Assembly: GCA_963719945.1 (NCBI GenBank)
Contig: CAVRDX010000004.1
Coordinates: forward strand, 192,001 to 256,000
DNA length: 64,000 nt
Direction of reading: 5' to 3'
DNA from: an uncultured Thermoplasmata archaeon
GTDB taxonomy: Archaea > Thermoplasmatota > Thermoplasmata > UBA10834
This document shows positions 15,443-20,529 of this stretch, piece after piece. The notes under the pieces were generated by a model. It saw nothing but the letters and a program-made list of their open reading frames with translations. It was not told where the DNA came from and ran no database searches. The position numbers and the translations under genes were made by a program. Position 1 is the stretch's first letter. Every line of letters starts with the position of its first letter.

Positions 15443-16147
15443 CTATGGCGTCTCGATCACTGACAGGAAATGGTAACCGTCCCTCGAGACAATCTCCTTC
15501 GAATCCAATATTATGGGGTGTGCGAGCATCGGCCCGTCCGTCACCACTGTATGATACTCTCCGTTCTCTCCTGCCGCATCTATGCCCAAGGTTTCCATCT
15601 CTCTGACGATATCAGGTGTCAGAGTCTTCCCGAGATAACTCTTATCCAATACGCCGTCCTTGACGGATACGATCATGGCCTTGAAACCCCTTTCGAAGAA
15701 CTCGGCCATCAGCTCTCGTCTTCCCGTCTTCCAGAGTGGAAGAGCCGCCTTCATCCCCATCTCCGAACTGACCCTCTCGACCCATTCCCTGTGACCTTCG
15801 AGGTCTATGTCACCGAAGACTCCATGGGTTATCCCTTGCTTCTTCAGTTCCTCCAGCGCATCTTTGAATTGCTCTTCATACCCTTCCCAGGAGGCGTTCC
15901 TGGTCATCAGTGGGATCCCCATCGCTCTGGCCTGGCTATCGATCACAGAGACGGGCAATCCATGTCCTCGCGATCTATCGCCAGTCTCGATCAACATGGT
16001 CAGAAGATTTCTCGGCGATGCTCCAAGCTCGATTGCATGGAACAATGCGAGTGCGGAGTCCTTACCTCCGCTCCAAGAACAAAAGAATGGTGTTTCGGGA
16101 ACCAGCGTCTCTACTTCACATTTTCGAGCTGGCTTATGATGTTCCAT
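15443..16147 (-). CDS. diphthine--ammonia ligase family ATP pyrophosphatase (start uncertain, possibly CTG 16105)
   Basis: SWSGGKDS, VFGDI, PLW, GENGEYHTVVTDGP. Confidence 0.88.
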   Translation of the reverse strand: MEHHKPARKCEVETLVPETPFFCSWSGGKDSALALFHAIELGASPRNLLTMLIETGDRSRGHGLPVSVIDSQARAMGIPLMTRNASWEGYEEQFKDALEELKKQGITHGVFGDIDLEGHREWVERVSSEMGMKAALPLWKTGRRELMAEFFERGFKAMIVSVKDGVLDKSYLGKTLTPDIVREMETLGIDAAGENGEYHTVVTDGPMLAHPIILDSKEIVSRDGYHFLSVIETP

Positions 16148-16365
16148 ATGAGCGTCCGCCCGTGGAGTGGTATGTTCGGATCATTGGCTAGTTCGTCGAG
16201 GATCATGATAGCGCTCGCGCTCCTGATGTCCAAAGCCTCCTCTTTGTGCGACAGTCTCTCCTTTGCTTGTGTCGCACCGCGCCGGATGTTCCTAGGGACC
16301 GAGTTGTCCTCGGCCAGCTGGTCCAACACCTCCATGATCTGTCTAAGCTTTGTTTCCATATCCAT
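16111..16365 (-). CDS. UPF0147 family protein
   Basis: DNSVPRNIRR, LDELANDPNIPLHGRTLIWNIISQLE. Confidence 0.92.
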   Translation of the reverse strand: MDMETKLRQIMEVLDQLAEDNSVPRNIRRGATQAKERLSHKEEALDIRSASAIMILDELANDPNIPLHGRTLIWNIISQLENVK

Positions 16366-16411
16366 AACGCTCACCTTCGAAAGTGATTTTTAATGAGGAA
16401 AGCGGAGAAAA

Positions 16412-16756
16412 CTATTCCTTCGGCTCTTCCTCAACTTCGACCTTGATCTTGCCTCTTTCCTTGAACGTCGTGACGACCATGAAAGTCTTGGTCTCCTTCA
16501 CGCCGTTTATGTCTGCGACATTGTCGACTATGAACCTCTTGAGGGCTCCATAATTAGGGAACCTTGCTTTTGCGAAGATATCCGTGTCCCCGGTGACCAG
16601 GAACACATCCTCGATATGGTCGTAGGATGCGATCTTCTCCGCGACCTCGTCGGACCCCTTCGTATCAATCTTGAAGCTGATTAGGGCCGTGACTTGTTCC
16701 TCACCATAGTACGTCGAGATGATCTCCTCGTACTCCTTCTTGTCCTTATCTTCCAT
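16412..16756 (-). CDS. Lrp/AsnC ligand-binding (RAM) domain protein lacking the HTH
   Basis: VFLVTGDTDIFAKARF, INGVKETKTFMV; no N-terminal HTH. Confidence 0.88.
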   Translation of the reverse strand: MEDKDKKEYEEIISTYYGEEQVTALISFKIDTKGSDEVAEKIASYDHIEDVFLVTGDTDIFAKARFPNYGALKRFIVDNVADINGVKETKTFMVVTTFKERGKIKVEVEEEPKE

Positions 16757-16894
16757 GTCTTCGCCCCCTGATTGAGGATGCCTCTATCCGCGTCGCGCGG
16801 TTATCCAAGCTCAGGCGCCCCTAGGGTCAACAAGAGCCTTATCCTATGCATTCCCGGAAGGGACTGCTTGATAAGGTTCGGTACGAGCCCGATG

Positions 16895-17065
16895 TTACAG
16901 GCGTGCGCCTTCGAATTCTTCTTGGAGGTCTATGATCACTTGTTCAAGGATCTCCTCCAAGCTGGCGCTCCTGTACTCTCGCATTCCACCAAGGTCACTC
17001 TGAACTCTTGCAACATACGATGCGTTGCTCTTCAGAAACTCAACGTTGCACAAGGGCTCTTCCAT
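16895..17065 (-). CDS. small acidic hypothetical protein (56 aa, absent from the ORF track)
   Basis: MEEPLCNVEFLKSNASYVARVQSDLGGMREYRSASLEEILEQVIIDLQEEFEGARL; GGGGTGA RBS 6 nt upstream. Confidence 0.75.
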   Translation of the reverse strand: MEEPLCNVEFLKSNASYVARVQSDLGGMREYRSASLEEILEQVIIDLQEEFEGARL

Positions 17066-17204
17066 CCGTGTTCACCCCATCTGGCCCAGGCACCACCCGA
17101 GGCCATGGTTAGCGCGCTGGTGCGCCATATATCCTCTATTATTTAGACCTTTCTTAAATTCCTTCCGGTGACCGGACGGGCCAGAATGCCGTCTGGCACG
17201 GGTC

Positions 17205-17263
17205 TGGGTCTGATGATGGGTGCCTTCAGGTCTGATCCATGCCCTCTAGCATACTCTACCTGA
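17205..17263 (+). ncRNA. candidate box C/D sRNA or K-turn element
   Basis: TGATGA 17211-17216, CTGA 17232-17235 and 17260-17263; no recognisable C' box; no target identified. Confidence 0.35.
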
Positions 17264-17305
17264 CGGGTTTACAATGTTCAAGTTCGGCCAATGCCAGCGA
17301 CCAAG

Positions 17306-17315
17306 TATTATATAT
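17306..17315 (+). promoter_or_regulatory. TATA box of the Ile-leader/ileS-like transcript
   Basis: TATTATATAT; TTATAT lies 32 nt before the uORF ATG, similar to the 30 nt spacing seen for the PAC2 gene and asnS. Confidence 0.7.
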
Positions 17316-17339
17316 CGCAGCAACAGTAATCCCAGATCG

Positions 17340-17381
17340 ATGAACTCGGCAGCCAATAGCCTTATCATAATTATAGGCTGA
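17340..17381 (+). CDS. Ile-rich leader peptide MNSAANSLIIIIG (putative attenuator uORF)
   Basis: ATG AAC TCG GCA GCC AAT AGC CTT ATC ATA ATT ATA GGC TGA, 55 nt upstream of an IleRS homologue. Confidence 0.75.
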   Translation: MNSAANSLIIIIG

Positions 17382-17436
17382 TTCTTGCCCCCATTGCCGA
17401 GTTTGTATTAGAGGCCTTTTGGAGGGATTTGTTGTT

Positions 17437-20400
17437 ATGAAGAAGTACTACCGAGAACCTGCCGGCGAGACCTTCTCCGGCATAGAAGAGGAGGTTCTCT
17501 CTCTCTGGGGACAGGAGAGCATGCTGCTCAAGGTCAAGGAGCGGATGCGCGACGGTGCCCCTCTGTACTTCTGCGAAGGTCCCCCGACCGCTAAGAGCCC
17601 GCCCCATTTCGGTGACGCCCTCACGCGCGCGGTCAAGGATGCGTTCCTCAGGTTCCACATAATGAACGGTAGGCAGGTCCTGCCCTACATAGGCGGCTGG
17701 GACTGTCATGGGCTCCCAGTCGAGCTGGAGGTCGAGCGGTCTCTGGGACTGGGGAGCAAGGCCGATATCGAGCGATACGGGATCGAACCCTTCAATTCTC
17801 GATGCCGCGAGAGCGTCCTCCGCTACAAGGGAGATTGGGAGGAGATGAGCCGGAGGGTCGGCTACTGGATCGATTTCGAGAATGCCTACATGACCATGTC
17901 CAACGAGTACATCGAGAGCGTATGGTGGTCAGTCAAGCAATTGCATTCGAAGGGCTTGCTGGTAAAGGACAAGCAGGTCGTCCCTTACTGCCCAAGGTGT
18001 GGAACCACCCTGAGCACTCACGAAGTGGCATTAGGTTTCGGCGAGGTCGAGACCAGATACGTCGTCGCCCGTTTCCGGATCGACGAGCTGGATGCCAGCG
18101 CCCTGGTCTACACCGAGACGCCATGGACCCTGGTGGCGAACGCCCTGCTCGCGGTCGACGGAAACCAACGCTATGTGCTCATGGAATCATCCGGTGAGAG
18201 GTTGCTTCTCAGCGAACCTAGCTCGAAGGTATGGTTGCCTTCGTGCAAGGTGCTTCGCACCTTCTCCGGAACAGAGCTGGTCGGTCTATCTTATGTTCCA
18301 CCGTTCAATTACTCGGGACGGCCAGGCGATTCGTTCAAGATTGTTCATTCTGACGAGGTAACCAAGGAGGAAGGCACCGGGATAATGCACGTGTGCCCCG
18401 CATGCAGCTCGATAGATTTCGAGATAGCAGCGGCCGAGGGTCTCGAATTGTTCGATCCGATCGACGAGACCGCGAGTTTCACGCAGGAAATCCCCGAACT
18501 CGCCGGCAAGCTGGTCACAGACTCAAGCACTGATGTTATACGGATGCTAGAGGGCTCAGGGTCTTTGTTCAAATGGGGTCTGATGAAACGGTCATCACCA
18601 TTTTGCTGGAGGTGTCAAACCCCGCTCATCTACAAGCTAAGAGACGCCTGGCTCATAAAGGCTTCAGATGTGAAGGACGAGATGTCCAGATTGAACCAGA
18701 AGATCCGATGGGTGCCTGAGACCTTCCGGGACCTGAGGTTCGGAAACTTCATCGCGGACGCTAAGGATTGGGCAGTCAGCCGGAGTCGATACTGGGGGAC
18801 GCCGCTACCTATCTGGAGATGCACGGAGGGCCACGAATACTGTGTGGGTTCGGTCCAGGAGCTAAGGGATTCGTCCGAGTCCCCGGTTCCAGATGGATCG
18901 GACCTGCACCGTCCTTTCGTGGATGCCGTCACCCTCAGATGCCCACAATGTGGTAGGAGCATGAAGCGTGAGGAATTCGTCCTCGACTGCTGGTACGATT
19001 CCGGGTGCGCGCCATTCGCCCAATACCACTACCCGTTCGAGAACAAGGATGTGTTCGATTCACACAGGTCATTGGATTTCATATCGGAATCAGTGGAGCA
19101 GACTCGCGGATGGTTCTACACACAGCATGTGTTGAGCACCCTGCTATTCGATGCTCCAGCGTTCACTTCCGTCCTTGTGATGGGTAACGTGCTCGGTGCC
19201 GATGGGAAGAAGATGAGGAACGTGCACAAGAACACGGTTTCACCGTCCGAGGTGTTCTCGTCCGTCGGTGCGGATGCATCAAGACTCTATCTCCTTGGAA
19301 GCCCGACGTGGGAGTCTGTTCAATTCTCGGAGGAGGATGTGAGGAAGACGATGGTCGGCACGCTCAAGACGCTCCTCAATGTCTACGCATTCTACGCATC
19401 CAATGCCAACGCTTACGGTTATACTGGCCAGGAGGCTGGAACCAAGACTCACGACCTGGACACCTGGATCCTATCCCGATTGAACACGACCATCGTTGAG
19501 GCCAGGAACGGATTCGACGACCTCGAGGTCCACCGGGCAGTGAACTCGGTAAGGGAGTTCGTGGAGGATTTGAGCAACTGGTATGTTCGCAGGTCCAGGC
19601 GCAGGTTCTGGGTCGAGAGCGATCCACTCGACCGCTTCTCCGCACATTCCACGCTCCATGAATGCCTCACGATATTGTCCAGAATAATGGCTCCGATCAC
19701 ACCTTTCTTCGCGGACTGGCTCTATAGAAACCTGAAAGGGGCCAAGGGAAGCGTGCATCTCGAGGACTATCCAATCGCTAACGAGGAACATTCCAACAAA
19801 CCGCTTGAGCTGCAGATGGCCATTGTTCGGAGGGCAGTCGAAGCCGGCCGTCTGGCCCGTCAGAACGCAAACATAAAGTTGAGACAGCCGCTCGAAGAGG
19901 TAGTGATAGCCGCCAGCAATGACGATGTATGGACGCTTCGCAGATATGAGAAGATGATCTCCGAGGAGCTGAATGTCCGATCAGTGAAGTGCATCGAATC
20001 CAGGGAGAGCATGGTGGAGTATACCATATCGGCGAACCTCAGGACCCTCGGTCCGAGGTTCAAGGAAGGGGCCGAGGAGGTCTCGAAACTGCTCGAGATG
20101 GTCGATGGTAGCGAACTGGTTAGACACCTGAAGACGAAGGGAAGGCTGCGTCTGGGAGGCTACGACCTCTACGAGGAGGATGTCATCATCAGCGAGACGC
20201 AGAAATCAGGATACACCCACGCATCGATGGATGACATGCATGTCTACTTCTCGACCAAGATGAATGCGAAGCTCAAGATGGATGGCCTCGCTAGAGAAGT
20301 CATCAGACGAGTACAGCACATGCGAAAGGAGCAGGGTCTGGCTTTCGATGACCTCGTCGTCGTGGAGTATTCGGCCCATCCGGACATCGAGGCGGCCATC

Positions 20401-20529
20401 GTCGCCCATAAGTCCCGTCTGGAGACGGAAACGCATGCGAAAACCTACTCGAAGTCCACCTCGCTCCAAGATGCCAAGAAGTGGACGGTCAACAAGATGC
20501 CGCTCGAGCTTGTGGTCAGGAGACTCTGA
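17437..20529 (+). CDS. ileS: isoleucyl-tRNA synthetase homologue with degenerate catalytic motifs
   Basis: EGPPT, GWDCHGLPVE, DWAVSRSRYWGTPLPIW, QTRGWFY, DLSNWYVRRSRRRFW, GLAREVIRRVQ; but HFGD for HIGH and KMRNV for KMSKS; GGAGGG RBS before ATG 17437. Confidence 0.85.
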   Translation: MKKYYREPAGETFSGIEEEVLSLWGQESMLLKVKERMRDGAPLYFCEGPPTAKSPPHFGDALTRAVKDAFLRFHIMNGRQVLPYIGGWDCHGLPVELEVERSLGLGSKADIERYGIEPFNSRCRESVLRYKGDWEEMSRRVGYWIDFENAYMTMSNEYIESVWWSVKQLHSKGLLVKDKQVVPYCPRCGTTLSTHEVALGFGEVETRYVVARFRIDELDASALVYTETPWTLVANALLAVDGNQRYVLMESSGERLLLSEPSSKVWLPSCKVLRTFSGTELVGLSYVPPFNYSGRPGDSFKIVHSDEVTKEEGTGIMHVCPACSSIDFEIAAAEGLELFDPIDETASFTQEIPELAGKLVTDSSTDVIRMLEGSGSLFKWGLMKRSSPFCWRCQTPLIYKLRDAWLIKASDVKDEMSRLNQKIRWVPETFRDLRFGNFIADAKDWAVSRSRYWGTPLPIWRCTEGHEYCVGSVQELRDSSESPVPDGSDLHRPFVDAVTLRCPQCGRSMKREEFVLDCWYDSGCAPFAQYHYPFENKDVFDSHRSLDFISESVEQTRGWFYTQHVLSTLLFDAPAFTSVLVMGNVLGADGKKMRNVHKNTVSPSEVFSSVGADASRLYLLGSPTWESVQFSEEDVRKTMVGTLKTLLNVYAFYASNANAYGYTGQEAGTKTHDLDTWILSRLNTTIVEARNGFDDLEVHRAVNSVREFVEDLSNWYVRRSRRRFWVESDPLDRFSAHSTLHECLTILSRIMAPITPFFADWLYRNLKGAKGSVHLEDYPIANEEHSNKPLELQMAIVRRAVEAGRLARQNANIKLRQPLEEVVIAASNDDVWTLRRYEKMISEELNVRSVKCIESRESMVEYTISANLRTLGPRFKEGAEEVSKLLEMVDGSELVRHLKTKGRLRLGGYDLYEEDVIISETQKSGYTHASMDDMHVYFSTKMNAKLKMDGLAREVIRRVQHMRKEQGLAFDDLVVVEYSAHPDIEAAIVAHKSRLETETHAKTYSKSTSLQDAKKWTVNKMPLELVVRRL

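Follow-up and report, generated by a model that had tools for sequence, protein, structure and literature searches.

A conserved isoleucine-codon leader upstream of a second isoleucyl-tRNA synthetase gene in Thermoplasmata

Layout of the leader locus

The window analysed here is a stretch of 64,000 nucleotides from an uncultured Thermoplasmata archaeon. It contains a gene for an isoleucyl-tRNA synthetase (IleRS), here called ileS-B, and a short upstream open reading frame (uORF) lies between this gene and its promoter. The leader as a whole is under 100 nt long. The parts of the locus are the following:

17301..17315, plus strand: archaeal promoter with BRE-like purines and TATA box, seen in the sequence
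17306-17315, plus strand: the TATA-like TATTATATAT
17340..17381, plus strand: 13-codon uORF, probably leaderless, supported by conservation
17340..17351, plus strand: 5' strand of stem P1, i.e., the uORF start and codons 2-4, 93-94% paired
17364..17375, plus strand: run of four Ile codons, ATC ATA ATT ATA (putative sensor), one codon before the stop
17379..17393, plus strand: stop codon and post-stop pyrimidine strand, potentially pairing with the SD region or with P1 strands
17395..17406, plus strand: 3' strand of P1 (switch strand), whose alternative partner in two other families is the ileS start codon
17405..17436, plus strand: RBS hairpin P2, with T4 at 17417-17420 and the SD GGAGGG at 17421-17426
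17437..20529, plus strand: ileS-B, the putatively regulated gene, a second IleRS of 1030 aa with its ATG at 17437, matching TIGR00392 above the cut-off

The original prediction was an isoleucine-sensing attenuator. The TATA box (17306-17315), the uORF (17340-17381), the Ile codons, the outer and inner stems, the GGAGGG motif and the IleRS start that it described are all present in the sequence. From its T-rich tracts, only a single one is found, the T4 at 17417-17420 in the RBS hairpin.

The best TATA 8-mer starts 30-34 nt 5' of the uORF ATG in 47 of 58 leaders. Given the usual TATA-to-TSS spacing in archaea, this places the uORF AUG at approximately the expected transcription start. Transcription therefore probably starts at or just before 17340, and the uORF is probably translated leaderless.

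A divergent cluster on the minus strand (window positions 16111-16756) adjoins the ileS-B promoter and encodes a stand-alone Lrp/AsnC ligand-binding-domain protein together with a PRK04330 protein. The cluster is a possible second amino-acid-sensing input.

The uORF is conserved and under selection

The Ile-run uORF is intact before the ileS-B orthologue in 40 of the 41 genomes of the host family (f1), and it also stands in each of the 18 genomes sampled from three further families of Thermoplasmata (f9 8/8, f18 3/3, f16 7/7). A looser form exists in f12 (1/1) and f22 (1/2). Before ileS in 34 genomes of nine other Thermoplasmata families no Ile-run uORF was found, and in these families a TATA box often lies directly 5' of ileS. 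Two automatic matches in f19 and f31 were dropped, as neither a correctly spaced TATA box nor P1 was seen. A pattern scan of contig DNA was also left out; it was too loose, with mostly chance bacterial matches.

The 41st genome of the host family (L146, G329 C81) carries an insertion of about 300 nt that splits the uORF inside the Ile run. Read on the opposite strand, its end is GTCAACTACC, which we take to resemble the ends of IS200/IS605 (IscB-type) elements.

Across 53 distinct uORFs, counting back from the stop, Ile stands at position -2 in 45, at -3 in 45, at -4 in 39 and at -5 in 38. All three codons are used (ATT 76, ATA 61, ATC 56), while ATG accounts for only 5 of the 189 ATN codons near the stop. 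The uORFs are 9 to 17 codons long, their indels comprise whole codons and their middle residues vary. The Ile run keeps a constant distance from the stop and from the strand that follows it, but not from the start. Because the Ile codons vary synonymously, ATG is avoided and indels are whole-codon, selection acts on the decoding of Ile.

In the long ORFs of the host genome, Ile makes up 6.8% of codons, and from this value the chance of such a run is roughly 2e-4 per 12-codon ORF. A genome-wide scan of the host found 106 TATA-associated candidate short ORFs upstream of genes. In four of these, one residue occurs four times within six codons; the ileS-B leader is the only perfect run, and another of the four precedes ilvB. 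As the run is rare per ORF, the only perfect one among these candidates and conserved with synonymous variation across families, it is beyond chance. The uORF is thus real and under selection.

It had been suggested that the AUA codons, which depend on an agmatidine-modified tRNA, make the modification state part of what is sensed. The leaders do not bear this out as a design feature: AUA is missing from 6 of the 53 distinct ones, and its share of their Ile codons (32%) is not above that in the genome (35%). At the last Ile position (-2), 37 of the 45 Ile codons are AUU, although the host genome uses this codon least of the three (13%), a figure for this one genome, while the leaders come from many.

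One stem is shared by all four families

The minimum free energy fold of the leader contains both the outer stem (P1) and the inner stem. The 121-nt leader region folds no better than its shuffles (z = -0.29), so that the hairpin alone is not beyond chance. In an unbiased search for conserved helices, P1 is the sole helix conserved across f1, f9, f16 and f18. It pairs the uORF start with a strand 11-25 nt beyond the stop; in the host genome it covers 17343-17351/17395-17403 and extends to 17340-17351/17395-17406. In f1, P1 is 93-94% paired with 3-4 pairs changed on both sides, and compensated swaps are seen both within and between families; these counts, as well as those for P2 below, are inflated by the relatedness of the sequences. 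The comparison of related Thermoplasmata that the original prediction had proposed thus finds both the uORF and a covarying stem, i.e., a selected Ile-codon uORF coupled to a conserved stem directly before ileS. The inner stem AGCCT/AGGCT is present in the host genome, but it is lineage-specific and does not belong to the conserved device.

Several mutually exclusive helices overlap the uORF. P1 covaries, while the alternatives to it are conserved without compensatory changes in the family alignments. In f9 and f18, the 3' P1 strand has the ileS start codon as an alternative partner, with a predicted helix of 7-8 bp that is 100% paired in 11 leaders. In 88-93% of the leaders in f1 subgroups, the stop-codon strand GAUUC can pair with an SD-proximal GAGUC or with a P1 strand. 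The RBS hairpin P2 is 89-90% paired in f1, with 3 pairs changed on both sides. Its mean z is -2.2 in f1; at -3.3 kcal/mol it is weak in the host genome, while it is strong in most of f1.

Tracts of four or more U follow P1 on its 3' side in 7/7 f16 and 3/3 f18 leaders, but only in about half of those from f1 and f9. The T4 of the host leader sits inside the RBS hairpin, and the U4 tracts of f1 are offset from P1. No bacterial-type terminator, i.e., a GC-rich hairpin directly followed by a U-tract, was found on the plus strand; the f16 leaders come closest to this arrangement. A scan of 16500-18000 against Rfam, including the T-box model, gave no match at E<=1.

The downstream gene is a second, degenerate IleRS in the host family

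The downstream gene is indeed an IleRS homologue, as predicted from the DNA; however, it is the second of two copies, and both its HIGH and its KMSKS motif are degenerate. The host genome has two IleRS genes that are 33% identical. In ileS-B, HIGH reads HFGD, KMSKS reads KMRNV and the editing motifs are eroded, and the protein is full-length and keeps the motifs of the Ile pocket and of the anticodon domain. None of the 25 aligned ileS-B members from f1 has retained KMSKS. The other gene, ileS-A (contig C1; L200:317-4435, minus strand), is intact, has HIGT and AMSKS, encodes about 1370 aa including a long non-synthetase C-terminal extension, and has no Ile uORF. From class I enzymology, an enzyme that lacks the second lysine of KMSKS is expected to be severely impaired in adenylation. 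On these motifs, the f1 ileS-B is therefore probably a non-charging copy of IleRS that binds tRNA and Ile.

In f9, f16 and f18 the same leader precedes an ileS-B with intact KMSKS, and in two f18 genomes ileS-B is the only IleRS found. In the protein tree the f1 ileS-B proteins form one long-branched clade, and labels of missing KMSKS outside f1 may be truncation artefacts. Because the deep nodes are open, we do not claim an order of leader gains and losses. The level of ileS-B appears to be tied to the supply of Ile-tRNA, which gives a clue to the role of the pseudo-enzyme.

The reverse degeneracy is seen in single genomes of three other families (G034, G035 and G037; L201-L203), where ileS-A lacks KMSKS and ileS-B is intact.

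A sister leader precedes ilvB

An Ile/Leu/Val-rich uORF of 26 codons precedes ilvB in the host genome (G000 C1:553807-553887; L204:308-388, plus strand). This leader is present in 30/30 f1 genomes with a TATA spacing similar to that of the ileS-B leader, and its uORF is probably also translated leaderless. It has a set of 1:2, 2:3 and 3:4 helices, and the inner stem of 3:4 contains six compensated pairs. The 3:4 hairpin has no U tail and leaves the SD free, which suggests an output other than SD occlusion. The ilvB leader adds support to the view that control by cognate codons is a principle at work in these archaea.

Proposed mechanism and alternatives

Judged from the pattern of conservation, it is very likely that the uORF senses Ile-tRNA by stalling of the ribosome on its Ile codons. 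We consider a ribosome-based Ile gauge the best explanation and a fairly probable one, i.e., leader-peptide control of ileS-B in which P1 is the OFF fold. It is equally probable that a stall blocks P1 and derepresses ileS-B. Among the possible outputs we narrowly favour termination, a tentative proposal on which we are somewhat doubtful.

Derepression on starvation is the likely sign, because the same leader precedes intact synthetases and f18 has one IleRS found. With this sign, P1 would be the OFF fold and the stalled state the route to ON. Transcription would start at or just before the uORF AUG, as the TATA spacing suggests, and the ribosome would presumably load leaderless. When Ile-tRNA is ample, the ribosome would run off and P1 could form, joining the start of the uORF to the strand beyond its stop. 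The pyrimidine/U-rich stretch that follows P1 would then be the site of premature termination or of 3' cleavage, either of the aCPSF1/FttA type or hairpin-assisted. When Ile-tRNA is scarce, the ribosome would wait on the Ile run and block P1, and the post-stop strand is then predicted to pair with the ileS initiation region, a helix that is conserved in f9 and f18. The stall would give read-through, and once the ribosome leaves, P1 would re-form and free the ileS start codon.

The termination reading matches the sign of derepression as well as the archaeal use of U4 tracts, which drive aCPSF1 termination (PMC13675443). In f1 it is weakly supported, as a U4 tract is found in about half of the leaders and lies inside P2. 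In the folding models the U-rich stretch is no less exposed during the stall and is more exposed in f1, f9 and f16, which is the wrong direction for a simple masking of the aCPSF1 site. The covariation of P2 points to selection on translation initiation and argues against a termination output.

The effect of a stalled ribosome was modelled using the footprint geometry from Haloferax (PMC7261190). A footprint of 27-28 nt was placed on the last Ile codon and the cost of opening the RBS was computed, with nested structures only. On average this cost rises with the stall, from 9.4 to 10.9 kcal/mol in f1, 7.7 to 11.6 in f9, 8.1 to 11.0 in f18 and 3.8 to 5.7 in f16, and the rise is seen in 26/34, 8/8, 3/3 and 5/7 leaders of the four families. 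In the host genome it is unchanged at 7.0 kcal/mol, a value that depends on how much coding sequence is in the folded segment. When the uORF is masked there, the post-stop pyrimidine strand pairs with the SD, so that the pairing between the pyrimidine stretch and the RBS envisaged in the original prediction is recovered in the host genome by the folding model. The idea that the stall opens the RBS was not reproduced with two masking models and several choices of folded segment; the opening cost is equal or higher in the four families, and much of the effect is non-specific. As shuffled switch strands reproduce much of the rise, the models give no trustworthy sign.

The same Ile sensor could act on translation initiation with the usual sign, if a pseudoknot or kinetic fold hides the RBS and the stall covers the anti-SD, in the manner of the mycobacterial poly-Cys leaders or the LEU element. 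The conserved P2 would fit this, as would GAUUC:GAGUC, which is found in 88-93% of f1 leaders and whose GAUUC is just reached by the 27-nt footprint of a ribosome on the last Ile codon, and the folding used leaves out pseudoknots. However, in the nested models the RBS is on average no easier to open in the stalled state, with no change in the host genome, and inspection of the alignments places the anti-SD past the footprint in f9, f16 and f18, so that we regard this variant as rather unlikely. If the folding models are instead taken literally, the switch is inverted, i.e., a ribosome sitting on the uORF would leave the switch strand free to lock the ileS start, and Ile starvation would lower translation. 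The 8-bp helix between the switch strand and the start codon in f9/f18 agrees with this sign, which would also be fitting for a pseudo-synthetase that binds tRNA/Ile and is best kept off while Ile is scarce. Yet most of the effect is reproduced by shuffled switch strands, and the leader precedes an intact IleRS in f9, f16 and f18, the only one found in f18, which makes the inverse switch improbable.

It can also be asked whether charging is sensed at all. The peptide or the stem might have another role, for example in protecting the mRNA 5' end or as a site for the IleRS-like protein, which keeps its tRNA-binding motifs, and P1 does constrain codons 2-4 at the nucleotide level. Against this stand the synonymous freedom of the Ile codons, the avoidance of ATG, the variable length and middle residues of the peptide, the agreement between the codon run and its ileS target, and the presence of an ILV leader before ilvB, and we consider such a role very improbable. 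In the other direction, the Ile gauge could be one part of a Thermoplasmata attenuation regulon containing at least ileS-B and ilvB. This would be leaderless and ribosome-gated and would use neither a hairpin-U terminator nor simple RBS unmasking; an archaeal termination or processing factor would read the fold, and in f1 it would also dose a dead IleRS with its own role in Ile starvation. This wider picture is speculative and, in our view, on the unlikely side.

Relation to known systems

The locus holds a real, conserved Ile-codon leader. It is very probably a form of leader-peptide control that is new for archaea, and its target is unusual. No description of ribosome-mediated attenuation of archaeal genes was found in the literature searched, whose coverage leaves out most subscription papers. 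The Met-Trp minigene reported for the trp region of Methanothermobacter may be an earlier hint of archaeal attenuation, and the Rfam motif leuA-Halobacteria may be another.

The leader resembles the bacterial aaRS attenuators, such as pheM-pheST and the predicted leuS and trpS leaders of Streptomyces (PMC1262725), in having a short uORF with a cognate run and competing helices before a synthetase gene. It differs in its archaeal TATA promoter, the probably leaderless uORF, the use of the uORF start in the main stem and the target gene ileS, and no GC hairpin is directly followed by a U-tract. The actinobacterial LEU element and the terminator-less cys leaders (PMC1262725) likewise combine a cognate uORF with conserved structure and lack classical attenuator parts, but they are found before biosynthetic genes in Bacteria, with a different sequence and fold. 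The leaderless poly-Cys sORF of mycobacteria (Ms5788A; bioRxiv 10.1101/834739) also has the cognate run at the 3' end, a paired RBS and no intrinsic terminator, and it starts at the TSS, as the uORF described here probably does. In the mycobacterial leader, the stall releases the SD from its pairing with the cognate codons (bioRxiv 10.1101/834739), whereas no conserved Ile-codon:SD pairing was found here and the models show no stall-driven RBS opening. T-box riboswitches of ileS, known from Firmicutes and in a translational type from Actinobacteria, share the presumed uncharged tRNA-Ile logic and an SD-sequestering hairpin; in contrast, the leader described here has no Rfam match, is shorter than 100 nt and would sense by a translated codon run. 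The target itself recalls LeuRS-I of Sulfolobus, reportedly a full-length second synthetase with eroded HIGH/KMSKS next to an intact copy. The differences are that the gene here encodes an IleRS with a cognate-codon leader and that some sister families show the degeneracy in the other copy instead.

At less than 100 nt, conserved in several families and with a sister at ilvB, the leader should be portable to an archaeal reporter. Its working would reveal how leaderless translation is linked to the control of termination or initiation in archaea, and its retention before an IleRS without KMSKS is a physiological clue to that pseudo-enzyme.

Other short ORFs

Two further TATA-associated short ORFs were noted in the host genome, the downstream genes being named by eye. 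One, with Thr, Ile and Met codons, lies before an isopropylmalate/homocitrate synthase-like gene (G000 C4:72868, minus strand), and a Met-rich one lies before a transporter-like gene (G000 C1:532281, plus strand). Asgard-type ileS genes (L008, L009, L011, L012, L027 and L032) have an SD-led uORF of 6-9 codons with one or two Ile codons about 105-125 nt upstream, unrelated in sequence to the Thermoplasmata leader.
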